The translations under genes and the position numbers were made by a program. This document shows positions 12,501 to 25,741 of a DNA stretch of 43,945 bases, one piece after another (position 1 is the stretch's first letter; each line of letters opens with the position of its first letter). The notes below the pieces were generated by a model, which worked only from the letters and a program-made list of their open reading frames with translations, was not told the origin of the DNA and searched no databases. This DNA is from a virus. The DNA is taken from the IMG/VR virus record IMGVR_UViG_3300017698_000057, positions 1-43,945 of that record, one strand, 5' to 3'.

Positions 12501-12835
12501 GCATCGTATCTGTTGCCGCTTTCGACAAAGCCGACGGCATCCCGGAAGGTTCCGTCACCTATGCCCACGCCCACACCGACGCTCGACAGCCCTTCCCGGC
12601 CCGGTGTCTCGATCTCCGGCAACGGCATTCGGTTGTCGCCCATCACCCGGCGCGACCATTCGTGCCCCGCCTCAAGACCGGTCTGGCGCTTCTTCTCTTT
12701 CGCGCCCTTGGCAAAAAAATCGTATGCCTCGTTCGCAATCTCGGCCAGCGCGGCAAACCCGGTCCCGGCCTGCGGCGTCACCCGCTGGAAATTCGAGATC
12801 GGTGTGCTGCGACGGATTTTCGGAAGTTGCGCCAT
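9599..12835 (-). CDS. Internal virion protein with N-terminal lytic transglycosylase-like domain
   Basis: 1078 aa. Residues of about 95-190 read GFVESGNRYDAVGP...GRAYGRYQVMDF, an SLT-like pattern with a catalytic Glu followed by a Y/MQ motif. This is analogous to T7 gp16. Confidence 0.65.
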   Translation of the reverse strand: MAQLPKIRRSTPISNFQRVTPQAGTGFAALAEIANEAYDFFAKGAKEKKRQTGLEAGHEWSRRVMGDNRMPLPEIETPGREGLSSVGVGVGIGDGTFRDAVGFVESGNRYDAVGPETSNGGRAYGRYQVMDFNIGPWTEEVLGRRMTPQEFLSDPEAQDAVFDAKFGAAYEQHGSLADAASVWFSGRPLSAAGSASDGYNTVPEYVAKVTGRYNSAISVSDDGTLTGGGFDSPDKIAADAMSELGVNVEVQPTPGAVGMIGGVKGNGEVWQSFDGDGTAHDPSYRDYSQLFREYRFDPPDDTWVPVGERNGRTVYAAPDYARDENGNYLSVSAAEAQQLAQERGGVVPTRDEVKALYEQAQPITMPTSGDFGKEGGEGTPEEYTAEVERRRQEAGVPEGAPVVHGKEFFAHDDIPLEEIVVTPQDNGEPRVSSRGTVEPATTVRTREGKIEPRLYSPLSGEILQAHNAAAGVAFLADTKLAAATDMMALSFENEGNPDGFMEAAEAYVESLVERAPDMFKGDLRNELTEEVQRRYLGMVDERHREIRTRASNSSKALIDRYRTEYAEAQAAGRTEEAAAARARLEDALLARESLPGVAWTRAQSENTILAALDDADRLRARRDKERSDEIGDRLDLAITARKGGRVAEGEDIIDDPAVWQMHPDKAQELAARIAAADVYPDFMALPPAQQQAVMAEEKARPVGAKYEMDFLSALQDLHKTTLAALGDDPVKFAAENLQNDTEIGPPPQIDFAAVATDPTGFAKSLRARSQWAERFQAAGYVEGLVPLSKDEAKMLSAALKPDQDPAGRAMLVGMIAQAAPEALPAMLQQAGADDVLVHGGGLAAVTGNVGLLEEAIRGQELVAAGQVQFPQGASKMGVVAPAVAEAMAGLPDAGNMQKRVMKFAQALYATQAGGVQTDEDRKELMAEAVNRALGQETLPKGVAGGVQSVNGFDTLLPTGMTVKEFNKAVFPPPNDFIAGMARSVIEIGDALAGTDNAVPEQEFDADRWKAASRDESLPTFRGTPLDEKAFSDPDRLRFVATGGGFYRIQYQTGMGFVDVMNDDGVSIFEFDVRKLAGG

Positions 12836-12841
12836 GAAGCC

Positions 12842-13258
12842 CTACCTAAGCAATTCGTACAGATCAAAGAGGGGCTGACCGGCCTTTGCCAAGCCGACTG
12901 GAAGTGCCATCTTCGCCATCTGCCCGGAATTGCGCGCCTTGGTTCGGAAGTCCGCCGCCTCCATCATGCGGTTGCCGAACTCGATGCTGCGTTCGCGGTC
13001 GCGTGTCTTGCGGAAGTCCTGGAACAACTCGAACGTGCCGGCATTCATCGGCTGACCGTTGGCCCCCAGCGCCGCCCGCATCGACCCGAGTTCCGATTCC
13101 AGCCCCTGACGGGCGCCAATGTCCGTCTGGATTGCCCGCGTTCGGGCGATGAAGGCGTTGCGGTTGTCGGCGTCCTGCTGAGCCTTGGCCTGCTGCCGCG
13201 CGCCCATAGCCCCCATAATTGGGCCCGCTGCTTGCGATACGAGTGCGACGGTCTCCAT
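12842..13258 (-). CDS. Small internal virion protein
   Basis: 138 aa starting METVALVSQAAGPIMG. Its ATG overlaps the stop of the upstream gene as TAATG. Size and position resemble T7 gp13/gp14. Confidence 0.5.
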   Translation of the reverse strand: METVALVSQAAGPIMGAMGARQQAKAQQDADNRNAFIARTRAIQTDIGARQGLESELGSMRAALGANGQPMNAGTFELFQDFRKTRDRERSIEFGNRMMEAADFRTKARNSGQMAKMALPVGLAKAGQPLFDLYELLR

Positions 13259-15501
13259 TATCCTTGAACCTCCTGTGCGAGATACAGAACCCGCAATTTG
13301 GCGGGTTTTTCCTTCACAACGGCCAATTCCGGGTAGGTGCGCCGCCCGAACACGGGGATGCGGTACTCTTTCGTCCTGAGCGGCGGCGCTTCGCCAAGAA
13401 TATCGCCGAAGTCGTAGCCCCCAAGCGGGCGGCTGTCGTTGTTGGCCTGCGCGGTGAACTCGCCCGAGTTCTGCACGGCGACGATGAACGTGATGCACCG
13501 CTCGTCGAACGTGCCGGCGCGGGCGCTGTCCAGCATCTCCGCCGGCCACGGCCGCACTTCCGCCTGGAAGTTCAGCCCGATCTGCCGGGTGCCGATGATG
13601 TCTGGCAGATCGGTGATCGTGCCGTCGCTGTTGACCGTGAACGGCCCCTGTATCCGTGATCCCTCGACGATATAGACATCCTTGCCCGCAAGCCGGATCG
13701 CGTGCGGAACACCGACATAGAGGGGATTGCCGTTGACCTCGAAGCCCGATCCGTTCGTCTCAAGCTGGTCGTAGGAGTTGCCCAGCGTTTCGACCTCCAT
13801 TCCGCAATCCACCAGAAACCCGTCCTCGAAGGTTTCCAGATACCGAACCGGGTTGCCGTCGATGGTCCGGTCCACCAGCGCCCAATACTTGCCGAACACC
13901 GGGGCCACATCGACGAACTCGCCCTGCGTGTCCCACGGCGCCGCGCCGATCACCTGTTCATCAAGCGACTCGTTGTAGCTGAGCGCGGCCAGCGTGCCGT
14001 CGCTGTTGACGATGAGAAGGTATTTCTCTGGGGTCGCGGATTCCACGGCGGGGCCGCACAGGTTGACCGGGCTGTTGATCAGGTGGTTGCTGGCCGCCGT
14101 CAGTGACCGCACCTGCCACCGCAACTGCACGTTGCCGCTCAGAACAGCGGCGGAAACCTGCTCGTTGTTCGATTCCACGAACACCACGCCATCATTCACC
14201 CGCACGGGCTTCACATCGGACGCGCCCCTGTCGTCGAACAGGATCGGGCTGAAATTCGACGGCGTGATGGCAACCTGCTCGCGCAGAAAGACGACGTAGC
14301 TGCCCTTGTCGGAAAAGATCAGAAGATCGCCGGAGTTGACCACATGCTTGAGCCGCGGCTTGCCGTCGCCGATCTCGCGCAAAATGGCGTCGTCATCCTC
14401 AAGCCCAACGTCGAAATCGTCGAACCCGCGCGCCGATGACACCGCGATTGCAGAGGGAACTTCCGGAAAATCGGTGAAGAACAGGCGCTGACCCGCGACG
14501 GCCGCCGCACGGGGCCAGCCATGCGCCGCCGACATCATCTGTTCATCCCAAACATCGGTCGGCTGTGGCGCGATCTCGGTCTTGCCGCCGGCGATCAGTT
14601 TGCTGCTGGTGTTCGGCCCCGATAGTTCCTCCGCGATGGTTGCGCCCGTTTCCGGCCCCTCGAAGCGATGAAGGGTCACAACTTCGAGCGTATCCTTGGA
14701 AAATAAACCACCAGATGCCTTGTAAACCGCCGTCACGCGCCCCTGCCAGTTGGAGTCGTTGCCTATGACGGCATCGCCCACGCGAAAGCCGCTGCTGTCC
14801 GTGATGCTCAGACGATAGGACGGCGGCAGTTCGTTGATCACCGTACCCTTGAGGGTGTTTGCGGCGATGAACTCGGTGATGGCGATCTCGCGATTGAGAT
14901 ACCGAATGCGGGTGCCGACATGCGAGGCGGTGAACACGTCCTCTGTCGCCGTGATCGTGATCGTGCCGGTCTTTCCCGACGGCTGGATCTTCACCTTGGG
15001 ATTGAACGCCCAGTAGGGTTGCGCGATCTCGCCGCCTGTGCTGTCAGCAAACGACCATGATCCGCCTTCCCATTCGCCATCATCATACCGGATATAGTAG
15101 ATGCCGAACGAACCGCCGATCAGAACCGTCGGCCCGATGGGCGTCACATAGACACCTTCCGCCGACGACCACGGCACCGCCGCGAACGTCTTGATCGCGG
15201 CGCCGGAATGATCGAACACCACCAATGAACTGTCGGTCACGTATATGCCGAAGGTGGTGTCCTCATCAGGCTTGTATTCCACCAGCTTGTTCGCGGTCAG
15301 AGGCACGTTCGCACGAAACGCGGTGCCGGGCCGGGCCTCGATCGCGCCCGTCGCCAGGGACCGCATGTTCCGCGCCCCCTTGAGCGCCAGTTTCAGCATG
15401 TCGGAATCGGTGCGGCCGAGGAAATCCTCACGGACCTCCATCAGCCGCATGTCCCGCTGAGATATGACCCGCTTCCGCCTAGCCACGTCCGAACCTCGCA
15501 T
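13258..15501 (-). CDS. Tail tubular protein B-like (nozzle)
   Basis: 747 aa. Size and position after the adaptor gene match T7 gp12. The start is uncertain, with alternative ATGs at 15450 and 15441. Confidence 0.55.
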   Translation of the reverse strand: MRGSDVARRKRVISQRDMRLMEVREDFLGRTDSDMLKLALKGARNMRSLATGAIEARPGTAFRANVPLTANKLVEYKPDEDTTFGIYVTDSSLVVFDHSGAAIKTFAAVPWSSAEGVYVTPIGPTVLIGGSFGIYYIRYDDGEWEGGSWSFADSTGGEIAQPYWAFNPKVKIQPSGKTGTITITATEDVFTASHVGTRIRYLNREIAITEFIAANTLKGTVINELPPSYRLSITDSSGFRVGDAVIGNDSNWQGRVTAVYKASGGLFSKDTLEVVTLHRFEGPETGATIAEELSGPNTSSKLIAGGKTEIAPQPTDVWDEQMMSAAHGWPRAAAVAGQRLFFTDFPEVPSAIAVSSARGFDDFDVGLEDDDAILREIGDGKPRLKHVVNSGDLLIFSDKGSYVVFLREQVAITPSNFSPILFDDRGASDVKPVRVNDGVVFVESNNEQVSAAVLSGNVQLRWQVRSLTAASNHLINSPVNLCGPAVESATPEKYLLIVNSDGTLAALSYNESLDEQVIGAAPWDTQGEFVDVAPVFGKYWALVDRTIDGNPVRYLETFEDGFLVDCGMEVETLGNSYDQLETNGSGFEVNGNPLYVGVPHAIRLAGKDVYIVEGSRIQGPFTVNSDGTITDLPDIIGTRQIGLNFQAEVRPWPAEMLDSARAGTFDERCITFIVAVQNSGEFTAQANNDSRPLGGYDFGDILGEAPPLRTKEYRIPVFGRRTYPELAVVKEKPAKLRVLYLAQEVQG

Positions 15502-16072
15502 CCGCCAGACGGCTGCGGCGGAAGGGCTCCTGCGCTTTCCGGGCCTTGCTGGAATTGGTGCGGGCGCGCTGGAACTGTGCCTCTGCCATCTGTTCCATGT
15601 TCGACGCTTCGCCGGTTTCCTCCTTCACCGCGCGCAGAAGGGCCGCTTCCAGCTTCATCTGCACGCCGCGGGCGAAGTTCGCCGTCCAGAAGGTCGGCTC
15701 TGTCACCTTGACGTACTCGACGATCACGCCGTCGGTGCTGTCGAGATAGACATAGCGATCATCCTGCACCCATTCCGGTTCCCAACGGCTGCCCGATGAT
15801 GCCTCAAGACGGGCCTTGCGGACATGAAGGGCGTCACCGGGCAGAAGATAGGCGTCGTCGAACCCGAATTTCCCGTCCGTTCGGGTGTTCAGCGTCGTCT
15901 CGACCTTGGTGAAGTGATAGGCGCCGTCCTCAAGTTCCGCCTCGACAATGAGCGGCCAGTTGCGGGACAGAACCCGGTGTTCGGGCAGGGAAACGCTCTC
16001 GTTGATTTCTTCGAGCCCCTGAGAAATCAGGGCCGCGTTCATGATGCCGGTCATGGAAAATTCGGTAGCCAT
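15479..16072 (-). CDS. Tail tubular protein A-like (adaptor)
   Basis: 197 aa. The N-terminus MATEFSMTGIMNAALISQGLEEI, together with size and position, resembles T7 gp11-type adaptors. Confidence 0.55.
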   Translation of the reverse strand: MATEFSMTGIMNAALISQGLEEINESVSLPEHRVLSRNWPLIVEAELEDGAYHFTKVETTLNTRTDGKFGFDDAYLLPGDALHVRKARLEASSGSRWEPEWVQDDRYVYLDSTDGVIVEYVKVTEPTFWTANFARGVQMKLEAALLRAVKEETGEASNMEQMAEAQFQRARTNSSKARKAQEPFRRSRLADARFGRG

Positions 16073-16185
16073 GCCGCGAATATCCGTGCGGGGCCGTTGT
16101 TCGGCTATGCACATGGAAGCGGCGGCCGGGCTCCGCGCGTCCCGGCCGCCGCAAGAGGGGCCACCATTTGGGGAGGAGTCGGCCC

Positions 16186-16521
16186 CTATTCGTCGAGAAC
16201 TTCGACCTTCTCAAGCCGGTTGCGGATCAGGCGGATGATGTCGGTTTTCTTCATCACCTTCTCCGTCTTGATGCCGAGAGACAGCATCATCACCTTGAGA
16301 TCGGCAATGTCGATCGATTCAAGGTCGGGCAGTTGCGGCTTGGCCGGGCCCTTGCTTTCCTCGATCTTGTACATGCCGCCGGAGCGCCGCACGTTCTCAA
16401 GTCCGGTCTGGTAGCTGACCGCAACGGGGCCTTTCTTCTTGGCGGCCTCGTACTGCGCGCGATCAGCGTCATCCTTGGGCTTGTAGGCCGGATCGGGCTT
16501 GCAGATCACCATTTTCGGCAT
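16186..16521 (-). CDS. Hypothetical protein with C-terminal SAP/Rho-N-like helix-extension-helix motif
   Basis: 111 aa. The C-terminus reads IDIADLKVMMLSLGIKTEKVMKKTDIIRLIRNRL. Its ATG overlaps the upstream stop as TGATG. Confidence 0.55.
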   Translation of the reverse strand: MPKMVICKPDPAYKPKDDADRAQYEAAKKKGPVAVSYQTGLENVRRSGGMYKIEESKGPAKPQLPDLESIDIADLKVMMLSLGIKTEKVMKKTDIIRLIRNRLEKVEVLDE

Positions 16522-16955
16522 CACAGAATCTCCTTCGTGATGTAGGCGCCGAACGTGATCGACGGGGACGTTCCCCCAACATCGAGGTGCAGGTCGATGT
16601 AGCGGAATGTGGTTTCATTCCGCTCCGTGCGCGCCCGCATGATGAACTGATTGCCCGCCACCGTGTCGACGGTTTCGATTGCCAGCGTCCCGGCATCGCC
16701 GAGTTCCAGCGTGTCGAGGATCTGGGCGTCGGAACGGTCAGAGACGTTCGATCCGACAAGGCGGAAGGTATAGGTCTCGTCATTTGCCGAGACCTTGCAG
16801 GCTTCCACGTTGATGACGCAGGCGATGTCGGTTGCTGCCGCACCGCCCTGGTCGTGCTGGGTGCCGATATAGCCATCGGCGGTGACGGCGACCGAACCGA
16901 GTTCCCGTTTGATCAGGCCGGTTGCCGCGTCCATTGCGTAGGTTTTCATGGGCAT
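16521..16955 (-). CDS. Hypothetical virion protein (possible capsid decoration protein)
   Basis: 144 aa, immediately downstream of the major capsid gene. AAGGGA Shine-Dalgarno is present. Confidence 0.5.
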   Translation of the reverse strand: MPMKTYAMDAATGLIKRELGSVAVTADGYIGTQHDQGGAAATDIACVINVEACKVSANDETYTFRLVGSNVSDRSDAQILDTLELGDAGTLAIETVDTVAGNQFIMRARTERNETTFRYIDLHLDVGGTSPSITFGAYITKEIL

Positions 16956-16967
16956 GGTCGGTATCCC

Positions 16968-17933
16968 TTACTTGGTGATTGCAGCGTTGGTGATCGACGA
17001 AAGCCGGATCGCCGCGAACGGGTCGAGAACCGCCATGCCAACGTCATGCTCGACGTTGACGCGGTGGTAGACACCATCTTCGAGAAGGCCGAAGTCCTGA
17101 ACCTCCATCGGCTTCACTTCGAGGCCGCACACGCCGTCCTCGGCAAAGCGCACGATGTAGATCGAACTGGTCACGGCAGAACCGCCGCCAGCCGCGACTT
17201 CATTGAACGGCAGGAACTCGCCGAACTTGGTCACGCCGTAGCCGGTGTAGATCGGCAGATCGCCGTACCGGGTGACGCGCCGGCCCATTTCGTCCTTGTC
17301 GAACGTGATGAAGCCGCCGATGGACGTGTCGCGCTGCGCCGCGCCGAAGCGATCCTTGAGCGCCTTCGGCATGATGATGGCGTTCGGGCTTTCGACGAGG
17401 CCGATGGCCCGGTCAAGCTGTGCCAGCGAAAGGGCTGCACCGCCGCTGCTGGACGAGTTCGCCAGGATGCGCGACATGTAGTTGGAGCCGTCCGTCGATC
17501 CGCCGACCGCCTTGAGCCGGGCTTTCAGGCCGGTGAACTCGCGCGGCTGCGACTGGTTGTCGCCGTCGATGAAGGTGTCGGCCCAAACCTTCGCCTTCTT
17601 CTTGATCGACATGCGTTCGTCGATCGACTTGCGGTCGGGGCCGTGGCGGCGCAGCAGGGCGCGGTCAACGTCGATGTTGCCGGCGATGGGGAACGTCTGT
17701 TCCACCTTGTCGTTCAGAAGGCCGTGGCCTTCATCCGGCGTTTCGTTGATCGCCCGGAAGCCCATGTTGTCGGGCAGTTCCGCTTCCTCAAGGTAGCGAT
17801 ACACGCCGCCGGGCGCCGTGTGGTAGGGCAGAAGCCCCATGAAATCCACGGCTTCCGGGAACAGTTCGATGATCGCCCGTTCCTTGGAATCCGCCGGATA
17901 GCTTTTCGCATATTCGATCAGAGTTTGAACCAT
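16968..17933 (-). CDS. Major capsid protein
   Basis: 321 aa between the scaffold and decoration genes, with an AAGGA Shine-Dalgarno. Length and composition fit an HK97-fold capsid protein. Confidence 0.75.
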   Translation of the reverse strand: MVQTLIEYAKSYPADSKERAIIELFPEAVDFMGLLPYHTAPGGVYRYLEEAELPDNMGFRAINETPDEGHGLLNDKVEQTFPIAGNIDVDRALLRRHGPDRKSIDERMSIKKKAKVWADTFIDGDNQSQPREFTGLKARLKAVGGSTDGSNYMSRILANSSSSGGAALSLAQLDRAIGLVESPNAIIMPKALKDRFGAAQRDTSIGGFITFDKDEMGRRVTRYGDLPIYTGYGVTKFGEFLPFNEVAAGGGSAVTSSIYIVRFAEDGVCGLEVKPMEVQDFGLLEDGVYHRVNVEHDVGMAVLDPFAAIRLSSITNAAITK

Positions 17934-17936
17934 GAT

Positions 17937-18719
17937 CTATCCTTTCGCCTGATTGGCATTGATGTGTTTCAGTCGCTCGAAGGGTGGCAATTTTTCGAGA
18001 TCGACCGTGGTTTGCGCGCGGGGAACGTCGGACCCAGGCCCGCGCGGGGCGAAAAGGGTCTCAAGGGCTCGAACGCCTTCATAAGTGGTCGCTGCGGCGG
18101 CCAGGGCGTTCACTTGGTCGGTGGGAAGGCGGGTCTGCATCGCCCGCAGCACGCGGTTCAGACGGGCTTCGCGCTGTGCGTCGTTGGCGCCGAGTTTCGC
18201 GGCCTCGGCTTTCGCGGCCTGGTACAGCTTCGCGGTTTCCGCCGCCTTGTACTTGGCGAGAAGGCCCATGACCTTCTGCGAGGCTTCCGCCGGGGCACCA
18301 AGGTCTTTCAGGAACTCGCCGAGTTCGCCGAACAGCGGTTTGAAATCCTCGTCATCGGTCGCCAGGTCGACGGCGAACCCTTCGGACAGGTCCAGTTCGC
18401 CGAAGTCCATGTCCTCGGGAACGGAAAAGTCATATTCGCCGTTCTCGGGAACCAGCCCGTCCGCTTCCGCGCGGCGGGCCTGTTCGGCCAGAAGTTCCTG
18501 GTAGTGGTTCTTGAAACCGTCCAGATCGGGGTTTCCATCATCCGTGCGGTAATCGTCCGGGATGAAGGACAGGTCCGGGCCAGTATCCGGTTCGGTGGCC
18601 ACGGGCGGATCAGCGGGCGGGTCCGCAGGCGGGTCGGCGGGAGTCGGATCACCCCCGCCGCCCGCGCCGGGCTCCGCTGTGTCCCTCGGAATGTCTGTCC
18701 AGTTCAGTCCGTATTTCAT
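17937..18719 (-). CDS. Scaffolding protein
   Basis: 260 aa, acidic, with PADPPADPPADPP repeats and an Ala/Lys-rich helical C-terminus. AGGAGGA lies upstream of the ATG (MKYGLNW). It sits between portal and capsid. Confidence 0.7.
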   Translation of the reverse strand: MKYGLNWTDIPRDTAEPGAGGGGDPTPADPPADPPADPPVATEPDTGPDLSFIPDDYRTDDGNPDLDGFKNHYQELLAEQARRAEADGLVPENGEYDFSVPEDMDFGELDLSEGFAVDLATDDEDFKPLFGELGEFLKDLGAPAEASQKVMGLLAKYKAAETAKLYQAAKAEAAKLGANDAQREARLNRVLRAMQTRLPTDQVNALAAAATTYEGVRALETLFAPRGPGSDVPRAQTTVDLEKLPPFERLKHINANQAKG

Positions 18720-19047
18720 CGCTCGCAATCCTCCTCAGATCGAGGGCGATGAAACGCTGAGAGTTGAGCGCGTCCAATGCACAGGCATCGGCATCCGGCG
18801 GAAGGAAAAATTCTTGGGTCGATTTTTCCAGCAATTCCAACAGCATAGCGCCGTGTTCCGTTGCCGCGACGGCTTGAACCGCCGCAACCGCCTGATCGGC
18901 TTTCTCCTTCAATCCCTTGCCGGGGGTGATGCGGTCGGCCTGGTAGAGATGCAGCAGGTAGTCGATGACGGGTCCGGGTTTACTCAGCCGGCGGGGCAGC
19001 CTGTTGGGCAACGTCCTGTTCCTCCTTGCGCAGCACGACGAGTTCAT
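18649..19047 (-). CDS. Possible small ORF in the portal-scaffold gap (start unresolved)
   Basis: Third-codon-position GC is high downstream of the portal stop (DYLLHLYQADRITPGKG...). The only upstream start (19047) lies 68 nt inside the portal gene. A TTG exists at the Leu of GKGLKEK. Confidence 0.25.
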   Translation of the reverse strand: MNSSCCARRNRTLPNRLPRRLSKPGPVIDYLLHLYQADRITPGKGLKEKADQAVAAVQAVAATEHGAMLLELLEKSTQEFFLPPDADACALDALNSQRFIALDLRRIASDEIRTELDRHSEGHSGARRGRRG

Positions 19048-20488
19048 CGCCGGATGCGTCGATGATGTTGGTGAAGGTCTTGATCGGGTCGATGAAGCCG
19101 AACACGTTGTCTTGGAACACGCTGAATGCCAGATCGAGGTTGGAGCGCGCGACCAGCACCTTGTCGTTGTTCTGGGCCCGTTGCAGGGGCGAGACGGGCG
19201 TTACCTTGATGTCGGTGCCGTTGTGGCTCAGGGCCTCGGGGATGCGGCCCATCGTGACGCCGAGATATTCGACGCGCTGGATGAAGGGGATGAACAGTTC
19301 GGTCCAGAGGGGGGCGGAAGGTTTGCCGATCCGCTGTTGCACGCGGCGCCGTTCGTCCACCCACTGCGTTGCCGACGGCGGGGTGTCGCCACGCTGGCGC
19401 GGGCCGTCCTGGTAGAAGGCGGCGCGAAGCCGTTCCTCGATCTTGCCTTCCTGGAAATAGCCGGCGTCGGGGGCCGGCGACTGCGGAAACTCGTAGATGC
19501 GATCTCGGGTGAAGCCGCGCGATGCGGGATAGGCCCGGCCCCGTTCAAGGCCCTCGGACATGTCGATGAAGCCGTCATCGGGATAGATGATGGTGTCCTT
19601 GAGCGTGTCCTCCATCGCCGTCAGGACGTATTCCTCGACGCGATCGAGCGTGCGCATGTCGGGCAGGGCCTTCCACCCGGCGCCGCGGCCCCAAGGCCGT
19701 CCGGGTTGGGGGTTGAAGCGGCCGACCAAGAGCGGGCAGACGCCGCCCGACAGGTCGCCAAGCGTTTCGGTGCCGGTGACGGGGTGCCCATCGACGGTGA
19801 TTTCCATCATCCACATGGGCCGAACGGGATCTGACCAGTCCACCCAGAAGCCCCAGACCACGCTGACCTCGGCATCGTCCTTGTTCATGGCCGTCTGGAT
19901 TTTGCGGTCGGACAGGTCGATCTCGATGCCGGGCATCATCAGCAGGTGGTTCAGGTCGCGGGCCATCACCTTGACCTCGCGGAATCGGTCGAGAATGCCG
20001 CGGTGGCCGCAGATCACGTAGAGTTCGTGCGGCGGGACGATCTCGACGTGCATCTGGTCGCCGATGGATGATTGCGTGACCCACATGCCGGGGGTGCCGT
20101 GGGTTGCGGCCTCGAAGCCCCATTGCGGCGCCACGTCGTTGTAGTTGGACGTGCTGATCAGGTCGAACAGGTCGTTCTCGCGGCGCTGCACGATCTCGCG
20201 CACTTCGTTTGCGTCCGCCTCATCGACCTCGGAAATCACGGCATATTCGGCCCATTGTGCTTCCGGCGGCGTGTAGTAGGACACCAGGTCGGCGGCGAGA
20301 TCGGACGCCAAATCCTCGGGCAGAGAATGGAAGTTCTGCGGCTCGTAGGTGGACATCGACTTGGTGAAGTCGAACTCGCGGCCGGGCGCGCAGAACTTGA
20401 AGATTTCCTCGATGGTCGGGCGCACGACGTTGCGCCACTTCTTCGCCGCCGCAAAGCGGGTCTTGAAGGCTTTCGACGGCTCTTTCAT
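18980..20488 (-). CDS. Portal (head-to-tail connector) protein
   Basis: 502 aa located upstream of scaffold and capsid. The sequence resembles T7-type connectors. Confidence 0.75.
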   Translation of the reverse strand: MKEPSKAFKTRFAAAKKWRNVVRPTIEEIFKFCAPGREFDFTKSMSTYEPQNFHSLPEDLASDLAADLVSYYTPPEAQWAEYAVISEVDEADANEVREIVQRRENDLFDLISTSNYNDVAPQWGFEAATHGTPGMWVTQSSIGDQMHVEIVPPHELYVICGHRGILDRFREVKVMARDLNHLLMMPGIEIDLSDRKIQTAMNKDDAEVSVVWGFWVDWSDPVRPMWMMEITVDGHPVTGTETLGDLSGGVCPLLVGRFNPQPGRPWGRGAGWKALPDMRTLDRVEEYVLTAMEDTLKDTIIYPDDGFIDMSEGLERGRAYPASRGFTRDRIYEFPQSPAPDAGYFQEGKIEERLRAAFYQDGPRQRGDTPPSATQWVDERRRVQQRIGKPSAPLWTELFIPFIQRVEYLGVTMGRIPEALSHNGTDIKVTPVSPLQRAQNNDKVLVARSNLDLAFSVFQDNVFGFIDPIKTFTNIIDASGDELVVLRKEEQDVAQQAAPPAE

Positions 20489-20655
20489 CAGCGGGATACG
20501 GTGCTGAACAGGCTCGGGCGGCTGTAGACTGCCGACAGGTCTTTGGTCAGGCTGGCGGCGTTTTTCTGCGCGGCATCGCGCCGATCAGCTTCCGCTCGCT
20601 TGCGTTGCCGTTCCCGTTCCGCCTTCGCCACTGGATCTTCCTTCGGACCTTTCAT
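20488..20655 (-). CDS. Possible 55-aa highly charged protein (not in the ORF track)
   Basis: MKGPKEDPVAKAERERQRKRAEADRRDAAQKNAASLTKDLSAVYSRPSLFSTVSR. GGAGA lies 6 nt upstream. Its stop overlaps the portal ATG as TGATG. It overlaps the 3' end of the 153-aa ORF by 71 nt. Confidence 0.4.
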   Translation of the reverse strand: MKGPKEDPVAKAERERQRKRAEADRRDAAQKNAASLTKDLSAVYSRPSLFSTVSR

Positions 20656-21046
20656 GAACTATCTCCGCTCCATTTTCGAGCAACATGCGCCGGAAACCTC
20701 GCAGGGTGTATGCACGCCACCCCAAGAGGGCCGCGCATTGGGTTCCGCAGTGCAGGTGCGGGCGGATCATGGGGTAGGTGATGCGGTCGGTGCGGTGGCC
20801 GATCTTGAGGATTTCGCGGCACCGCATGAAGCGTTCCTGCCCGAAATCAAGGATTTCCTCGTAGAGATGCGTGATTTCGATGATCGTGTGCCGGCCGCGC
20901 GGGTCGAAGAACAGCCATGTCCCGTCGATGGTGTATCCCCATGCCTCGACGTGGCCGAACATGGTGGTGACGCTTTCCCGGCCGCGGGCGATGTCGATCA
21001 GCGAGCCCCGATCATGGAAGCCGAAGTACCATTCGTGAATGTTCAC
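20585..21046 (-). CDS. Hypothetical 153-aa protein between terminase and portal
   Basis: The GTG start overlaps the TerL stop as GTGA and has AGGAGG 6 nt upstream. No family was recognised. Confidence 0.55.
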   Translation of the reverse strand: MNIHEWYFGFHDRGSLIDIARGRESVTTMFGHVEAWGYTIDGTWLFFDPRGRHTIIEITHLYEEILDFGQERFMRCREILKIGHRTDRITYPMIRPHLHCGTQCAALLGWRAYTLRGFRRMLLENGAEIVHERSEGRSSGEGGTGTATQASGS

Positions 21047-23496
21047 GCGCGCCTCCTGATGGATGATCTGCGCACGGGCGAGGGTGCCGCGCGCTTCGTG
21101 GTGGCGCGGCTGACAATGGCATCACCTTCGCCGCCGCCCATGAGGCCGTTTTCCAACGCCTCGACGATATGGGAATAGCGGTTCTTGACGGGCCGGGGCG
21201 AGTAGAGGCCGGCGGTGCCCTGGATTTTCTTGTAGTGGTAGCCGCCTGCCATGCCGGTTCGCAGGGTGAGGCATTTGGGGTTGATGCGCATACCGTTGCG
21301 GCGGGCCAGAACGCCGTCGACGGTGGAGCGCCGCATTTCGGGGTTATTGTCCGTGGTGGCGGGAAAGACCGTGATGCCTTCGCGCTCGAAGATGTCGTAG
21401 GCGGTGGTTTCGTCGCTTTGGGTCCGGTCGGCGCCGCGCGGGTCGCCCCACGCCTCGAAGTCCATGCCGGGAAATTTCGTCGCAAGAACGCGCTTCACGC
21501 GCGGCGCGAACAGGGTGGCGCTTTCGTTGTCGCCGATCAGTTCTTCGAGGACATTCCACTGGCCGTTGACGCATTGCATGAATGCGGCCGCCGGGTCGCG
21601 CCCGAAGTCCAGGCCTATGATGACGGGGAAGCCAGCGACCGGCTCGACATCGTAGCTGTGAACGTGATCCTGCTGCGAAAACGTGGGATATACCGCCTTG
21701 CCGCCGACGTAGAGGCCGACGCGGTTCATCACCCGCTGGTCGATCCAGTCCTTTTTCTTCGCCCGTATTTGCTGCATGTACGACTTCTTGAGATGCCGTT
21801 GGTTTTCGGCTTCCGGGTTCGGCTGATAGACAAGGTTGCCGTCGGCATCGCGCGTCTCGATCAGGCCCGGCGGCTGGACAAGGAACCGCCATAGCGGCTT
21901 GCCGTCCTCGTCGCGCGGGATCTCCATCATCGCCTTTTCCTCGTCCGTCCATTCCGGCGGAAACGGAATGTCGCCGCGCATGTAGGGTATCCAGTGCCCC
22001 TCAGACGGCGCGTTCAGGTCGATCATGCCGCCGTACCATGTCGCGCCGGGGCCACCCTTCGTCGAGGGATACCGGCCGCACCGCGAAAGAAGTTCGTCAA
22101 CAACCTCCTTCTCGACGAACTGACCTTCGTTGATCCAGAACCCGGTGATCTCGAACGACGCCGCTTCCTGTTCCGCCGTCTCCGGCCCGTCGATCGCTAT
22201 GAAGATCACCTCGCACTCGACCTTCGTTCCATCCCCGGACGGATGCCCGCGCCGCAGCACATGCGACATCGGCTCCGACCGGATCATGTCGCCCCACTCG
22301 TGTTCAGGAAACCAGTCCAGCCAGGTCTTGATCGTCGTTTTCTTCAACTGACGGTACGAACTCCGCACCACAAGCCATCGCGTCCGTCGAACGCCGTCGA
22401 AATCCGGCTCCTGCTCAAGCGCCAGCTTCCATATCCGGTGGCACGAACACGTCGACGTTCCGGAGTTCCCGGTCACGAAGATGCGCCCGTTGTGGCGCGC
22501 AAGAAAGAACCCCGTTGATGTGGTGAAGCAGTATTTTCGGGCCGCTGGAACGCGCTCGATCTGGATTCCGTCCGCCCTGATGCCCACAGAAGATTTCGCG
22601 CTTCCCTTGTGTGTGATGTGGACACTGTAGATCGGCGCCCAATCGGGATTGCGGCTGTCGATCTTCTTCGTGATCGTAGCTCGCCGGCCTGTGGCGTGAG
22701 CGCAATATTGGATGAACTCCGCGGTGCGCAGGCAGGTTCCGTCAAATCGAACATCGTCACCGCTGAAAAGACCGTCCCAGTGCTTCACTTCGTCGAGAAC
22801 GACCTCGCACTTGGCAGACCCACACCCGATGAAGTTCAACTCCTTGCTCATCCAAGGCTGGCGTTGAAAGGCGAACGTCAACTCCGTCGGCCTGGTCGAG
22901 TGCTGATGTTCATCGAACGGGATACCGGCCCGGATCAAGAGTTGCCGAAGGCGATCCTTCTTTCGCTCCTTCCGAACCGTGACGACGACCTGATTTCCCT
23001 GCTTCGGGAAGCAACCGTCGGCAGCAATTGCCACCGCCAACCGGAGCTGTGCCTCATCGAACGGTGCGCCGCGCGCATGGAACGTCGTCGGCAGCGTGTA
23101 CCGCCCAGGCGCCGCCGCAACATCGGAAGCCAGCCGCACGCGGAAATCGCCGTTCCGATCATACAGTGCCACGCGATGTTCATCGGACAGCATCATCGAA
23201 AGCGAGTGCTGGTTGTGAAACCACCACATTTCGGAGCACGGCTTGTCCACGTAGGCAGACGGATGCTCGAACCACGCCTCGCCAGTTTCCGACCAAACGA
23301 AAACACGGTCGCCGTCCGACCATTCATCCATTCGCTTCCAGCCGTAGGGCGTCAGGAACTCCGTATCGCCGCTCAAACAGCCGATCGGCCCCTGGATCAC
23401 CACCAACTCGCTCTTGTCGTGAAGATACTGCTCAAGAACACGCCCGTCGGGCTCATAGACCAGGTTCCCCCGCGGCGTCCGCGCCAGACCCGCCAT
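21043..23496 (-). CDS. terL: Terminase large subunit, interrupted by an intein
   Basis: 817-aa precursor starting MAGLARTPRGN, with its ATG overlapping the upstream stop as TGATG. It has an ATPase N-terminus and a nuclease-like C-terminus. Removing residues 40-344 leaves 512 aa. Confidence 0.8.
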   Translation of the reverse strand: MAGLARTPRGNLVYEPDGRVLEQYLHDKSELVVIQGPIGCLSGDTEFLTPYGWKRMDEWSDGDRVFVWSETGEAWFEHPSAYVDKPCSEMWWFHNQHSLSMMLSDEHRVALYDRNGDFRVRLASDVAAAPGRYTLPTTFHARGAPFDEAQLRLAVAIAADGCFPKQGNQVVVTVRKERKKDRLRQLLIRAGIPFDEHQHSTRPTELTFAFQRQPWMSKELNFIGCGSAKCEVVLDEVKHWDGLFSGDDVRFDGTCLRTAEFIQYCAHATGRRATITKKIDSRNPDWAPIYSVHITHKGSAKSSVGIRADGIQIERVPAARKYCFTTSTGFFLARHNGRIFVTGNSGTSTCSCHRIWKLALEQEPDFDGVRRTRWLVVRSSYRQLKKTTIKTWLDWFPEHEWGDMIRSEPMSHVLRRGHPSGDGTKVECEVIFIAIDGPETAEQEAASFEITGFWINEGQFVEKEVVDELLSRCGRYPSTKGGPGATWYGGMIDLNAPSEGHWIPYMRGDIPFPPEWTDEEKAMMEIPRDEDGKPLWRFLVQPPGLIETRDADGNLVYQPNPEAENQRHLKKSYMQQIRAKKKDWIDQRVMNRVGLYVGGKAVYPTFSQQDHVHSYDVEPVAGFPVIIGLDFGRDPAAAFMQCVNGQWNVLEELIGDNESATLFAPRVKRVLATKFPGMDFEAWGDPRGADRTQSDETTAYDIFEREGITVFPATTDNNPEMRRSTVDGVLARRNGMRINPKCLTLRTGMAGGYHYKKIQGTAGLYSPRPVKNRYSHIVEALENGLMGGGEGDAIVSRATTKRAAPSPVRRSSIRRRA
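22465..23379 (-). mobile_element. Intein (Hint domain plus LAGLIDADG-like endonuclease region) in the TerL P-loop
   Basis: It starts with Cys (TGT at 23377-23379) in CLSGDTEFLT, has block B LSDEH and the motif LAVAIAADGCF, and ends IFVTGN (AAC at 22465-22467) followed by Ser. Length is 305 aa. Confidence 0.7.
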
Positions 23497-23753
23497 CAGT
23501 CCGTCCCCCGTACAACATCCAACAACTCGGCGTGAGCCGCCGTCAAAGCGCCAAGCATCACGAACCCGCCGCACATCCCAGCAAGACGAAAACCCGCTGT
23601 CCCGTCAAAATGCTCGAACGCAAACACACCACCGACAATCTCGCCAGACCGCGCTGCCTCCAAAGCTGCCTCCAAAGCCGCAACCAACGTCGCATTCGGC
23701 TCCAAAACACCCGTAGGACCACCGCAAAGGCTCACAACTTTCCCGTCACTCAT
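23496..23753 (-). CDS. Hypothetical 85-aa protein immediately upstream of TerL (small terminase candidate)
   Basis: MSDGKVVSLCGGPTG... with GGGAGG 9 nt upstream. Its stop overlaps the TerL ATG. Its size is comparable to T7 gp18. Confidence 0.5.
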   Translation of the reverse strand: MSDGKVVSLCGGPTGVLEPNATLVAALEAALEAARSGEIVGGVFAFEHFDGTAGFRLAGMCGGFVMLGALTAAHAELLDVVRGTD

Positions 23754-23777
23754 ACCAAAATCCTCCCAAAATGTTCG

Positions 23778-23846
23778 GTTTGTGAAAGAAAGCACCCCAA
23801 AACACCCATACCCGCCCCGGAACATGTGTTGAATTTGTGAAAGAAA
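23778..23846. repeat. Two copies of a 13-bp AT-rich direct repeat, TTTGTGAAAGAAA
   Basis: Perfect copies at 23778-23790 and 23834-23846, with 17 of 20 bases matching when extended. A tandem CACAAAACC repeat follows at about 23859-23880. Confidence 0.85.
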
Positions 23847-23925
23847 TCGCCCTTCCAGCACCACAAAACCCACAAAACCCCAGCAAAATAAGGCGAAAAT
23901 ATAAAAAAATTTCGGACAATGGCGC

Positions 23926-23983
23926 GGGGGGGGGTGGTATACGCACTTTTGCCGCGCGCGATTTTAGCCCCCCCCCCACCCCC
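23926..23983. repeat. Opposed homopolymer tracts G9-T-GG and C10-A-C5
   Basis: G9 at 23926-23934 and C10AC5 at 23968-23983 flank an alternating GC core. They are partly complementary over an 8-bp stem. Confidence 0.85.
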
Positions 23984-24125
23984 GACGATGGGCCGCCCCC
24001 TGCCAGTGCAGATCGGGGCCGAGATGGGGCCGAGCCGGGCTGTTGTATCGCCCAGCATGTCACAACTATGGGCGCAAACCCCTTGTTTCATTGGCTCTGG
24101 CATGGCTGGTCCCACTGACTGCACA

Positions 24126-24665
24126 TCAGTTGCCCGCATCATCTGGCCCCTGACCCGTCACATCCTCGGCCGATCCCTCGATCTCTACCACGCGCTGCCC
24201 AGGTCGGGCATACTCGTAACCCCCTGAATTTACGGTGTTATTTATCGTGATCGACGCCGCCGGAGACGCCTCGCGCCTGAAGAACTCGACCATGCGCGCC
24301 TTCACCTGTTCGCTTTTTGCGTTGTCAAGGAGGTAAGCAGCTACCTCAAGTGCGCGTGCTTTGTGCCGCAGCGCGAGGTCTTCACAGTGTTGAATATACT
24401 TGTCTTTTTCGATTTCGTAGAGGGCTTTAACATGCTCTTGCCTGAACGCCTTGTGCCATGCAGCTTCGGAGAGGTCAGCGAGGGCGCATGCTTCCTTGAT
24501 CGTCAGGCCCTTGTGGACCCTGTTCTTGATTGCCTTGCGTAGTTTTGCGCTTACGCGCCGGGCTCCGCCCCGCTTCACTCCCCCTGTAGGTGGTTTATCG
24601 TGGCATATCTCGACGGGCCCGGCCCTGGTCTCGATGGTGGTAAATCCGCGCGGTTCTTTTGTCAT
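24126..24665 (-). CDS. HTH DNA-binding protein (small terminase or late-gene regulator candidate)
   Basis: 179 aa with the HTH-like segment GLTIKEACALADLSEAAWHKAF followed by a helical region. It is the first gene of the minus-strand late block. Confidence 0.45.
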   Translation of the reverse strand: MTKEPRGFTTIETRAGPVEICHDKPPTGGVKRGGARRVSAKLRKAIKNRVHKGLTIKEACALADLSEAAWHKAFRQEHVKALYEIEKDKYIQHCEDLALRHKARALEVAAYLLDNAKSEQVKARMVEFFRREASPAASITINNTVNSGGYEYARPGQRVVEIEGSAEDVTGQGPDDAGN

Positions 24666-24752
24666 GCGGCGGATGATGCGGCGGCGGCGTCGGTCTTATC
24701 TATGCACGATGGCGGCGCGGCTCTTTCCCGATCATTTTTTTCGCTTTTGGTC

Positions 24753-24781
24753 TTGACCGGCGGTTTTTCTGTTCTTATATC
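24753..24781 (+). promoter_or_regulatory. Sigma70-like promoter for the plus-strand island
   Basis: TTGACC (24753-24758), a 17-nt spacer and TATATC (24776-24781), 50 nt upstream of the ATG at 24831. Confidence 0.5.
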
Positions 24782-24830
24782 TCGGTCATGGGCGCCGGAA
24801 ACGCCCGACCACACAGAGAGAGGAAAGACC

Positions 24831-25052
24831 ATGAGCATCATTGACCGCCTCAATTCCGGCGAACTGCACGCCGCCGCACGCGCCCGCCGTCCCGATTGTG
24901 TGGATGGCAACGGCAACATTCACGTTTCGCCCGAACGCGCGCGCTTTGTTGATTGGCTGCGCCGGATGAAAACCATCTACGGCGATGACGTGGCCGAGTG
25001 GCCGCCGATCCCGCGCGCCGAATACGCCCGCAAATATGTGCCGTCGCACTGA
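24831..25052 (+). CDS. Hypothetical 73-aa protein
   Basis: Preceded by CACAGAGAGAGGAAAGACC before the ATG. Third-codon-position GC is high. Confidence 0.6.
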   Translation: MSIIDRLNSGELHAAARARRPDCVDGNGNIHVSPERARFVDWLRRMKTIYGDDVAEWPPIPRAEYARKYVPSH

Positions 25053-25144
25053 CCCATCTACGGCGGCTTTCCGAAGCCGTCGCTACATGGGCCAGACCAT
25101 GACCCGGACGGAAACCGGGGAAACACAGAGAGAGAGGATTAAAG

Positions 25145-25741
25145 ATGGCAACTCGCGCAACGTACACAATCGACGGCGTAAACTTTTACTGCCACTGGGA
25201 CGGCTACCCCGCTGGCGCGGCGGGCCGCTTCATCGCCATGATTGAGGCAATGACCGCCATAGAGGATGACCCCAAGCGCGCATGGTGCGGGCCTTTCCAA
25301 GATCGGCGCGGCGGCGCGGCCTTCGCGTTCATCCGTGGCAATCTCGATGCAGAGCCAGCTTGGCCGGGCGGCCACGGCGACACCGAATTTCATTACGAGA
25401 TCTGGACCGCCGACGATGGCCGCCTGCACATCCACTACAAAGAACGCCACTACGGCGACGACTGGAATCCGGTTGATACCCTGACGCTGGCCGAGTTCTG
25501 CAATCGCCACGGCCGAAAGTTCGATTTGCCGCGCGTGGTCGAGATGCGGGAAGATGCCTACGGCGTCGCCGGCCACGTGACCCGGTACAAGATCGCCACT
25601 GCACCCACGGCAGAGCGCGCGGTTTCGCACCAAGTCGCACGGGCCGAGGAATACGGAGACCAGAACCCGAACGCCAAAGAATGCCTCAAGCGCGCCGACG
25701 CATGGCGTATCGCCTTGGAACTGGACGGCCAACCGGCCTGA
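25145..25741 (+). CDS. Hypothetical 198-aa protein (contains YCHWDGYP)
   Basis: Preceded by CACAGAGAGAGAGGATTAAAG before the ATG. No family was recognised. Confidence 0.65.
   Translation: MATRATYTIDGVNFYCHWDGYPAGAAGRFIAMIEAMTAIEDDPKRAWCGPFQDRRGGAAFAFIRGNLDAEPAWPGGHGDTEFHYEIWTADDGRLHIHYKERHYGDDWNPVDTLTLAEFCNRHGRKFDLPRVVEMREDAYGVAGHVTRYKIATAPTAERAVSHQVARAEEYGDQNPNAKECLKRADAWRIALELDGQPA

Follow-up and report, generated by a model that had tools for sequence, protein, structure and literature searches.

[quoted passage not shown]

The AceL NrdHF-1-1 intein (6zgq; Hoffmann et al. 2020, PMC7891396), found on a phage-like contig from an Antarctic lake, is split in nature and is a proven member of class 3, albeit an "unusual" one. 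Its residues S65, H68, R69, M70, C124, T144, G145, N146 and S+1 are documented, and mutational analyses have shown that C124A/S and G145H abolish splicing and that R69A slows it (PMC7891396). The same study explained the penultimate Gly experimentally, Arg69 replacing the missing His, and called the Thr at G:5 characteristic of class 3 (PMC7891396).

Inteins have also been described in terminase large subunits (TerL). Those of actinophages and mycobacteriophages carry LAGLIDADG endonucleases and are inserted in the ATPase domain, including the Walker A loop; phage TerL inteins often lack the penultimate His, Gly being among its replacements (PMC5050341; Gosselin et al. 2025 preprint). At the "classic" TerL1-a site, the insertion separates the Walker Lys from the Thr (PMC5050341). 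More generally, the residues assisting class 1 splicing (Asp F:4, His F:13 and the penultimate His) are common, not obligatory (PMC4031507). The canonical class 3 inteins carry a WCT triplet (Trp B:12, Cys F:4, Thr G:5), as in MP-Be DnaB and Msm/Mch DnaB-1; MP-Catera gp206 keeps Ser1/Cys1, and in 3 of 37 WCT inteins the first residue is Ser or Cys (Tori et al. 2010, PMC2807308). Two views compete on how class 3 arose: the Perler laboratory holds that a phage intein lost its nucleophile once (PMC3196547), and Beyer et al. (2020; PMC7664689) propose that class 3 originated separately, by convergence.

The locus analysed here lies in a window of 43,945 nt, positions 1–43,945 of the IMG/VR virus record IMGVR_UViG_3300017698_000057. 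The TerL precursor gene (21,043–23,496, minus strand) encodes 817 aa plus a stop codon, with N-extein, intein and C-extein in a single reading frame. The minus-strand frame extends to a GTG (23,574–21,043), the ATG at 23,496 being the real start, in agreement with the N-terminus of the homologue P0009. The N-extein (39 aa; 23,380–23,496, minus) runs up to the first half of the Walker A motif (...VVIQGPIG), and the C-extein (473 aa plus stop; 21,043–22,464, minus) starts with the second half (SGTST). The host could be identified as a TerL because a tblastn search matched annotated phage TerLs at 36–43%, the C-extein matched the TerL family phrog_2 (E 6e-15), and the fold agrees: the Foldseek top matches of an AlphaFold (AF2) model of the spliced form are the D6E, T4 gp17, Sf6 gp2 and HK97 TerL terminases, and an N-terminal ASCE ATPase is followed by a C-terminal RNase-H-like nuclease. 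Downstream genes encode portal, major head, tail and virion proteins, and the intein host is the TerL of a podovirus-like phage or prophage. This TerL is not detected by Pfam. Relatives were found in Rhodobacteraceae genomes, and related TerLs are present in bacterial chromosomes of Phaeobacter, Primorskyibacter and Pseudooceanicola. In 50,697 phage genomes, blastn gave no nucleotide match to the gene, its relatives there being found at the protein level only.

The initial annotation had proposed that a 305-aa in-frame insert splits the TerL P-loop and that its removal leaves a 512-aa terminase. Both statements were reproduced. The intein (CLSGDTEF...IFVTGN) occupies 22,465–23,379 on the minus strand, its codons 1–305 corresponding exactly to 23,379–22,465, with the junctions ...ELVVIQGPIG|CLSGDTEF and ...RIFVTGN|SGTSTCSCHRIW. 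The 512 aa that remain (817 minus 305) match in length the intein-free allele P0009, encoded by L001, from which precisely this segment is missing. The alignment to L001 falls into two blocks, window positions 25,147–23,381 and 22,461–11,065, with 919 window bases (23,380–22,462) between them. The empty site is clean, at about 2350–2410 of L001 (...ATCCAGGGACCGATCGGT|TCTGGAACCTCGACG...), and the window carries silent variants of it; the exteins are 98.2% identical and become colinear once 915 nt are removed. When spliced in silico, the gene aligns with the intein-free one over 1539 nt without gaps; the two are 95.0% identical and differ synonymously at 62 codons and nonsynonymously at 9. A wider comparison gave the same picture: 98 of the 120 best TerL relatives have no intein and are not colinear through this segment, and the other 22 have one. 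Within the Walker A loop (GPIG|SGTS), Gly39 is the last residue before the insertion and Ser40 the first after it. The AF2 model of P0009 has a strand at residues 31–35 and the loop at 36–41, which places the insertion between strand 1 and helix 1.

The rebuilt loop reads G-P-I-G-S-G-T-S(-T), with Thr where the Walker A Lys is expected, and thus departs from the canonical GxxxxGK[ST]. This substitution, already pointed out in the initial annotation as unusual, is real and is found clade-wide, with or without the intein, rather than being peculiar to this copy. Among the 120 best TerL relatives, 116 have Thr or Ser instead of the Walker Lys, always with a Lys or Arg seven residues further on; the Lys-less loop GPIGSGTS and the co-varying basic residue occur together in all 98 intein-free relatives. 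Here this residue is R49, in the C-extein (22,435–22,437). The Lys-less P-loop is the usual condition in this TerL clade. Nothing useful on terminases whose Walker A motif has no Lys came out of a literature search. The combination with a downstream Lys or Arg stands apart as an unusual feature of ATPase design that lends itself to testing.

The splicing domain is made of two segments. The HINT N-terminal part (intein aa 1–100; 23,080–23,379, minus), delineated by family conservation and by its end-to-end match to AceL NrdHF 6zgq, contains block A, with Cys1, Thr6 and Glu7, and block B, the core of which is S65-D-E-H68-R69-V70 (23,170–23,187, minus), where Ser65 is B:7, His68 B:10, Arg69 B:11 and Val70 B:12. 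The C-terminal part (aa 262–305; 22,465–22,596, minus) contains block F, K-Y-C284-F (22,525–22,536, minus), and block G, T303-G304-N305, which together with Ser+1 forms the C-terminal splice junction (22,462–22,473, minus) and is the same T-G-N|S as in AceL NrdHF. C284 occupies F:4, where class 3 inteins have their obligate nucleophile, and aligns with Cys124 of AceL NrdHF, an Ala in the crystallised mutant. Conservation was counted over 182 family members: His B:10 is invariant (182/182), the terminal Asn is present in 181, Cys F:4 and Gly G:6 in 180 each, and Thr or Ser G:5 in 178. The +1 residue is Ser in 117 relatives, Thr in 38 and Cys in 26. The Cys1, block A CLSGDT, block B S65-D-E-H68 and terminal Asn followed by Ser listed initially are therefore all there, and the splice-junction residues Cys1, S65-x-x-H68, Asn305 and Ser+1 are conserved in the family. 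Its signature, as read from the aligned members, is Cys1...S-x-x-H-R...K-Y-C-F...T-G-N|S/T/C. The penultimate Gly had been singled out as unusual; it is present, and it is the rule in the family rather than a peculiarity of this copy. By analogy with AceL NrdHF, Arg69 (B:11) is a likely stand-in for the missing penultimate His, and Thr303 would by homology hold His68. The block-F Cys and block-G Thr, the feature that makes the splicing chemistry interesting, had been overlooked in the initial annotation.

The AF2 model of the intein is of high confidence (pLDDT 95, pTM 0.91), and its HINT fold was recognised by Foldseek with probability 1.00 to endonuclease (HEN)-containing inteins, to the hedgehog Hog domain 1at0, to a mini-intein and to 6zgq. 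Detection by sequence was more demanding. Among the Pfam profiles, LAGLIDADG_3 passed marginally (23.0 bits for a cut-off of 22.5), whereas Hint, at 11 bits, stayed below its cut-off and Hint_2 and Intein_splicing were not significant either; the HINT domain was recovered by structure and profile instead. The NCBIfam intein models gave no significant match to the insert. A single-sequence search of PDB sequences retrieved nothing relevant, and a family profile was needed: restricted to the HINT part, it matched 6zgq end to end (E 6.6e-14), the second-best match being at 5.6e-4. In PHROGs, the intein is matched only via phrog_32482 ("PhoH-like"), which itself contains a related intein. The absence of a Pfam Hint call is the one point that could favour a permanent domain, retained in the mature terminase. 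Such a reading is extremely improbable, because 305 residues placed inside the P-loop, after strand 1 and before helix 1, would block nucleotide binding, the HINT fold comes with a complete set of splice-junction residues, and related inteins interrupt unrelated ATPases at this P-loop site too (GxxG|SGK[ST]), and also occur in RtcB.

Between the two HINT parts lies the LAGLIDADG homing endonuclease domain (intein aa 101–261; 22,597–23,079, minus), which consists of two pseudo-symmetric halves and yields Foldseek matches to I-DmoI and I-Tsp061I. Its first motif, LAVAIAADG (aa 114–122; 23,014–23,040, minus), had been correctly identified; it closes the helix 109–121, and its Asp121 is found in 178 of the 182 relatives. 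The second had been placed at CAHATGRRA (aa 226–234; 22,678–22,704), but this segment is just a regular helix within the second half of the endonuclease. The genuine second LAGLIDADG helix carries VVLDEVKHWDG (aa 193–203; 22,771–22,803, minus), at the end of the model helix 188–201, with Asp202-Gly203; Asp202 is conserved in 179 and Trp201 in 181 of 182 relatives. Both LAGLIDADG helices thus end with an acidic residue followed by Gly, as in a single-chain endonuclease. On the whole chain, the best structural matches are the HEN inteins TliVMA 7qsu, PhoVMA 7qst, PI-PfuI 1dq3 and PI-SceI 1vde (E 2e-14 to 3e-11, TMq 0.6–0.71, 8–14% sequence identity). These archaeal and yeast inteins share the two-domain arrangement of HINT and LAGLIDADG, but they are larger (about 360–450 aa, with extra DNA-recognition regions) and belong to class 1. 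The empty site, the HINT fold and profile, and LAGLIDADG_3 together support the initial proposal of an intein with a LAGLIDADG endonuclease in the terminase P-loop.

An open reading frame of 308 aa on the opposite strand (22,609–23,535, plus) was considered as a free-standing or antisense endonuclease gene. Its length is near that of the intein, and antisense LAGLIDADG genes have been reported inside actinophage inteins (bioRxiv 10.1101/2025.01.02.630785). It belongs to no Pfam family, and long spurious frames abound on both strands of the window (about 61% G+C). In contrast, the minus-strand product has a confidently modelled fold with an in-frame endonuclease, and is conserved as a protein in more than 1600 clusters. 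The candidate was rejected, a real gene on this strand being hardly credible.

The family to which this intein belongs is large. At E<=1e-10 it has matches in 1605 protein clusters, and about 3200 clusters are related overall; counted at 50% identity, there are at least 1600. The TerL insert is not a chance feature, because so many clusters were matched and its boundaries in the DNA are exact. The intein is of a known kind, a homing-endonuclease intein in a phage TerL, and its family is poorly annotated: it was not flagged as a large family in the literature examined and is missed by the Pfam and NCBIfam intein models. Intein and extein relationships look discordant. The closest extein overall (P0009, 98.2%) has no intein, so that presence and absence are polymorphic at 98% extein identity. 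The closest intein-bearing extein (P0001) is 83.8% identical, its intein only 59.4%; conversely, the closest inteins (P0006, P0002 and P0003, 75–76%) are found within exteins that are only 59–65% identical. The dN/dS values of HINT-N (0.11), HEN (0.14) and HINT-C (0.06) are rough, dS being saturated (about 1.6), and point to purifying selection on both the HINT and the endonuclease domains. Given this discordance and the purifying selection that seems to act on the two domains, the element is probably active and mobile. We hold with high confidence that a genuine intein (HINT plus two-motif LAGLIDADG) of this sort occupies the TerL Walker A loop. A decayed, non-splicing fossil within a dead TerL gene is very unlikely. 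The related TerLs of bacterial chromosomes would be compatible with it, and the contig could be a defective prophage that no longer needs its TerL; but the 817-codon frame is intact with all splicing and endonuclease catalytic residues present, dN/dS is low across the intein, and the structural module is complete, with 93.5% identity to another contig.

Among solved structures, AceL NrdHF is the only one with clear sequence similarity to the TerL intein. Both have Ser65, His68, Arg69, the F:4 Cys and T-G-N|S, with near-identical numbering, both lack the F:13 and penultimate His, and both have a hydrophobic residue other than Trp at B:12 (Met70 and Val70, respectively). They differ at position 1, which is Ala in AceL NrdHF and Cys in the TerL intein, and in their organisation: AceL NrdHF is split, has 146 aa and a separate GIY-YIG gene, and interrupts a ribonucleotide reductase (NrdHF) outside any P-loop, whereas the TerL intein is contiguous, with 305 aa and an in-frame LAGLIDADG domain, and lies in a P-loop. 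Set against the actinophage TerL inteins by description, the insertion site of the family is two residues upstream of TerL1-a. With the WCT inteins, the TerL intein shares Cys F:4, Thr G:5, a +1 residue that is mostly Ser or Thr, the location in phage ATPase P-loops and a proposed phage origin, but it lacks their Trp B:12 and penultimate His. Two of the three triplet positions are thus retained (Val70/Cys284/Thr303). Since the solved class 3 DnaB inteins are absent from the profile matches at E<=10, the TerL intein lineage is at most distantly related to them. Tori and Perler (2011) reportedly found residue 1 to be dispensable in Catera-type inteins.

The splicing chemistry predicted for this intein does not fall neatly into one class. 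Cys1 is the N-terminal residue of class 1, and class 3 inteins have no Cys, Ser or Thr there; the class 1 assisting positions are occupied by Cys at F:4 (not Asp), Gly290 at the F:13 equivalent (not His) and Gly at G:6 (not His). By analogy with AceL NrdHF, we lean towards Cys284 (F:4) being the required catalytic nucleophile or branch point, which a retained Cys1 would feed through a linear thioester, unless Cys1 acts redundantly. Against Cys284 acting first stand the retention of Cys1 in 176 of 182 members, which suggests that Cys1 itself is selected and may be a class 1-type initiating nucleophile, and the Val, Met or Ile found at B:12 rather than the class 3 Trp. It is quite conceivable that the intein is an ordinary class 1 one, in which Cys1 forms the linear thioester, Ser+1 attacks it, Asn305 cyclises and Cys284 is no nucleophile but just replaces the usual Asp or acts with Cys1 as a redox or metal switch. 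Besides the frequency of Cys1, class 1 splicing is favoured by the member P0200, which has Phe at F:4 and still keeps Cys1, and by the Bethlehem gp51 intein, which splices as class 1 with a penultimate Gly (PMC5050341). It is opposed by the conservation of Cys F:4, which exceeds that of Cys1 (180 versus 176), by the absolute requirement for this Cys in AceL NrdHF, the only characterised member of the family, by the class 3-like Thr at G:5 (PMC7891396), and by the members that lack Cys1.

There are six such members, five with Pro1 and one with Ala1. All keep Cys F:4 and every other catalytic residue, and they are scattered among Cys1 relatives. Two of the Pro1 members (P0201 and P0184) are only 60% identical, so that the Pro1 state has persisted. 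These metagenomic variants could be dead copies or errors; their 90% clusters held no independent sequences, only the same ones translated from another start codon. A tentative reading of this distribution, possible at best, is that the family combines the class 1 nucleophile (Cys1) with a class 3 set (Cys F:4, Thr G:5, His B:10) and has shed Cys1 independently several times. If so, the switch from class 1 to class 3 can go stepwise and repeatedly, which bears on the dispute between a single nucleophile loss and a convergent class 3 origin. The natural variants (Cys1, Pro1, Ala1 and the one F:4 Phe) form a ready test set for class 3 origin.

In the proposed scheme, returning to the active intein favoured here, the unspliced precursor would be unable to form the ATP-binding loop, so that TerL could not bind ATP until the intein leaves, and phage DNA packaging is predicted to depend on post-translational splicing. 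Excision of the 305 residues would join GPIG to SGTST and yield the 512-aa TerL, as in intein-free relatives. During co-infection, the endonuclease would cleave TerL alleles that lack the intein, at the conserved codons of the P-loop, and the element would be copied in (homing). AceL NrdHF needs only minutes to splice and shows few side reactions, and its contiguous Cys1 relatives may serve as cis-splicing tools.

For annotation, the consequence is that TerL and splicing domain both escape Pfam and NCBIfam, which leaves an 817-aa hypothetical protein in pipelines; related inteins of P-loop ATPases, thousands in number, are affected in the same way. Next to the TerL gene, a 92-nt tRNA-Cys call (20,720–20,811) falls within a conserved protein gene and is a probable false positive.

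The initial annotation had placed a 305-residue insert at 22465-23379 in the gene of the large terminase subunit (TerL), and these limits were reproduced exactly. The gene lies in a long minus-strand open reading frame (23574..21043); its start is placed at ATG 23496, since the N-terminal MAGLARTPRGN thus encoded is also that of the homologue P0009 (the intein-free TerL allele of contig L001), and its product has 817 residues. The intein corresponds to product residues 40-344 (CLSGDTEF...RIFVTGN), with codons spanning exactly 23379..22465 on the minus strand and splice junctions, marked here by a slash, reading ...VVIQGPIG/C and N/SGTSTCSCHRIW. A whole-protein search retrieved 381 relatives, the best 120 of which were scored for the insert: it is present in 22, each about 800-880 residues long, and absent from 98, each about 500-525 residues long. 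P0009 is 98.2% identical to the window exteins and its site reads ...VVIQGPIGSGTSTCSCHRIW. The alignment of contig L001 covers window positions 25147-23381 and 22461-11065, two blocks separated by 919 window bases (23380-22462), with only 4 unaligned L001 bases opposite. Intein-free homologues are therefore not colinear with the window through this segment, in line with the insertion first proposed. The expected 512-residue product of its removal is borne out too, since P0009 has precisely this length and the two TerL genes, after in-silico deletion of 22465-23379, align gap-free over 1539 nt at 95.0% identity, 62 of the codon differences being synonymous and 9 nonsynonymous. On the downstream side of the insertion site (11065-22461), which holds the C-extein and the structural genes, identity to L001 is 93.5%, against 85.8% on the upstream side (23381-25147), with the N-extein and the upstream small genes; this drop suggests a mosaic boundary near the TerL start.

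The Pfam check of the insert gives a divided answer, with LAGLIDADG_3 at 23.0 bits, above the cut-off of 22.5, and Hint at just 11 bits, the similarity to the HINT splicing domain coming from structure instead. An NCBIfam search with the intein and a PDB search with its single sequence gave no match. The AlphaFold model (33 homologues; pLDDT 95, pTM 0.91) is decisive and identifies the insert as an intein that carries a homing endonuclease. Foldseek matched the whole chain to the endonuclease-containing inteins TliVMA, PhoVMA, PI-PfuI and PI-SceI in the PDB (E 2e-14 to 3e-11, TMq 0.61-0.71), the middle domain to I-DmoI, and the splicing domain to the hedgehog autoprocessing domain and the AceL NrdHF intein. 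The modelled endonuclease consists of two pseudo-symmetric halves, opening with helices 109-121 and 188-201, each directly followed by Asp-Gly (D121-G122 and D202-G203). Asp121, Asp202 and Trp201 are conserved in 178, 179 and 181 of 182 full-length relatives, respectively. The second LAGLIDADG motif is thus VVLDEVKHWDG (22771-22803, minus strand), because helix 188-201 ends at Asp-Gly and Asp202 and Trp201 are near-invariant; CAHATGRRA, to which this role was first assigned, forms the next helix (217-229). Since both acidic residues are conserved, the endonuclease is probably active.

The usual intein HMMs overlook what is a large family: in an exhaustive HMMER search, the 305-residue query reached 3200 clusters (formed at 50% identity) with an E-value limit of 1e-3, and 1605 with a limit of 1e-10. 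Its signature was read from 182 full-length copies cut out of their hosts, 181-182 being scored per column. Residue 1 is Cys in 176 copies, Pro in 5 and Ala in 1. Block B shows Ser (145) or Thr (34) at B:7, His (182) at B:10, Arg (139) at B:11 and Val, Met or Ile, never Trp, at B:12. Further on are found Cys (180) at F:4, Thr (147) or Ser (31) at G:5, Gly (180) at G:6 and Asn (181) at G:7, flanked by Gly at -1 (151) and by Ser (117), Thr (38) or Cys (26) at +1. The penultimate Gly had been described as unusual; it is present but not peculiar to the window copy, and its frequency at G:6 marks it as a family signature rather than a defect. The C-extein usually starts with [STC]GK[ST], so the main site of the family is GxxG/SGK[ST] within Walker A loops; the 'classic' Lys/Thr P-loop site of mycobacteriophage TerL lies two residues further downstream (PMC5050341). 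Family members are carried by TerL-like, AAA_28 and Terminase_6N proteins, among others, and away from P-loops by RtcB. Two separate inteins of this family occur in each of ten large proteins that rank with the best matches (P0157, P0161, P0174, P0177, P0182, P0185, P0198, P0207, P0254 and P0260), at 148-450 and 605-928 in P0157; the second copies are often outside a GK[ST] context, with Cys at +1.

A profile restricted to the splicing domain (alignment A2) gave a single strong PDB match, 6zgq (E 6.6e-14; next 5.6e-4), whose alignment spans block A through the C-terminus. This split intein, AceL NrdHF-1-1, splices by the class 3 route, starting at a block-F Cys and not at residue 1 (Hoffmann et al., PMC7891396). 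According to the same study, it has Ala1, an 'MCT' triplet (M70, C124, T144) replacing WCT, neither F:13 His nor penultimate His, and a T144-G145-N146/S C-terminus. The C124A and C124S mutants are dead, as is G145H, whose His would clash with Arg69; Arg69 is hydrogen-bonded to the C-terminal scissile carbonyl, R69A slows splicing, and T144 holds His68 (PMC7891396). The window intein matches this set with Ser65, His68, Arg69, Val70, Cys284, Thr303, Gly304, Asn305 and Ser+1, the numbering being near-equal in the N-terminal part, and these common residues would explain how it can dispense with a penultimate His. [quoted passage not shown]

The catalytic signature of the window intein thus looks like a hybrid, Cys1 being combined with the AceL-type class 3 set. 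On balance, we lean towards Cys284 being required, with Cys1 either feeding Cys284 or redundant. Cys is better conserved at F:4 than at position 1 (180 vs 176 family copies), and AceL NrdHF-1-1 absolutely needs its F:4 Cys; the Thr at G:5 and the predominance of Ser/Thr at +1 are likewise typical of class 3 (PMC2807308). A plain class 1 intein, starting at Cys1, is a serious possibility without being the favoured one: Cys1 occurs in 97% of very divergent family members and would therefore be under selection, B:12 is not Trp, and the relative P0200 has Phe at F:4 together with Cys1. This reading fits less well with the F:4 conservation, and with six relatives in which residue 1 is Pro or Ala while every other catalytic residue is kept. 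Four of the six have Cys1 inteins as nearest relatives, which points to several independent losses of Cys1, and the paired Pro1 inteins P0201 and P0184 share no more than 60% identity, so that the Pro1 state seems to have persisted; a cluster look-up found no independent second sequence for the Pro1/Ala1 variants. Conversion from class 1 to class 3 has been argued to be improbable (Beyer et al., PMC7664689). A family with both nucleophiles, repeatedly shedding Cys1, might represent such a switch made stepwise, a tentative and somewhat doubtful scenario which, if true, would bear on that question.

Intein and extein histories, as judged from identities, disagree. The closest extein of all (P0009) has no intein; the closest intein-bearing one (P0001, 83.8%) carries an intein only 59.4% identical to that of the window, and the closest inteins (P0006, P0002 and P0003, 75-76%) reside in exteins only 59-65% identical. 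Relative to P0006 (locus L003), dN/dS is 0.11 for HINT-N, 0.14 for the endonuclease, 0.06 for HINT-C and 0.36 for the exteins, rough values as dS is saturated. GC3 is 72.8% in the intein versus 80.9% in the exteins. When the insertion-site flanks are compared (window 23368-23391 and 22453-22476 vs L001 2366-2389), occupied and empty alleles show four synonymous differences no more than 12 nt from the insertion point (GGG/GGA, GGC/GGT, TCC/TCT and ACG/ACC), against about 1.2 expected from the gene-wide mismatch rate; this is weakly suggestive of target-site divergence, or may be chance.

The spliced protein is a TerL. It shares 36-43% identity with phage TerLs (tblastn), its C-extein matches phrog_2, and the top PDB matches of the AF2 model of P0009 (pLDDT 88) are the D6E, T4 gp17, Sf6 gp2, HK97 and T7 terminases; downstream on this strand come the genes for portal, major head, tail and virion proteins. 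Pfam detects no terminase domain in the 512-residue spliced protein, and TerL relatives in the protein collection are nearly all unnamed or 'hypothetical protein'. There is thus an annotation blind spot, the terminase domain and the Hint domain of the intein both being missed by Pfam, and the intein also by NCBIfam.

In the P0009 model, a strand (31-35), a loop (36-41, PIGSGT) and a helix (42-56) follow each other, a layout which identifies GPIGSGTS as the Walker A loop, with the intein in its middle; SGTST, the second half, is encoded at 22450-22464 (minus strand). Where Walker A normally has Lys, the rebuilt loop has Thr (GPIGSGTST); this substitution, reported at the outset, is real but not peculiar, the best 120 relatives having SGTS (113, including all 98 intein-free proteins), SGSS (3) or SGK[ST] (only 4), and it is no junction artefact. 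Seven positions past this Thr lies Arg49 of the spliced TerL (22435-22437, minus strand). The residue there is Lys (63) or Arg (54), with no exception, in the 117 proteins with Thr/Ser in the Lys place, and mostly Glu or Ala, basic in only 7, in the 95 with the canonical Lys. This basic residue in helix 1 could be a relocated positive charge, the co-variation belonging to one clade and so to one evolutionary event.

Inteins of this type are already well documented in phage TerL. The terminase ATPase loop was correctly named as an intein hot spot: for LAGLIDADG-endonuclease inteins in these loops, one study lists 50 TerL1 inteins (Kelley 2016, PMC5050341) and a 2025 actinophage survey 293 TerL inteins (bioRxiv 10.1101/2025.01.02.630785). 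Less ordinary here are the size of the family and its invisibility to the usual intein HMMs, the site shifted upstream by two residues from the classic position, and the hybrid signature. In two TerL relatives, P0069 and P0080 (845 and 840 residues), a different site is occupied by an intein unrelated to that of the window (residues about 73-405; ...WIITRD/CFDDQTEILT...RAFWCSQ/TYKELR), which scores 29 bits with LAGLIDADG_3 and weakly matches Hint_2; comparison with relatives lacking an intein suggests a terminal Gln instead of Asn, followed by Thr at +1.

In the window, TerL adjoins a 153-residue open reading frame (20585-21046, minus strand), conserved at the same place in L001. A 92-nt tRNA-Cys (GCA) called by ARAGORN antisense inside it (20720-20811, plus strand) is a probable false positive. 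This frame, of unassigned function, is all that the window and L001 have at the position where L003 carries, between TerL and portal (5772-6035), an 87-residue gene with a Pfam match to the Acb2/Tad1-hairpin family of anti-defence sponges.
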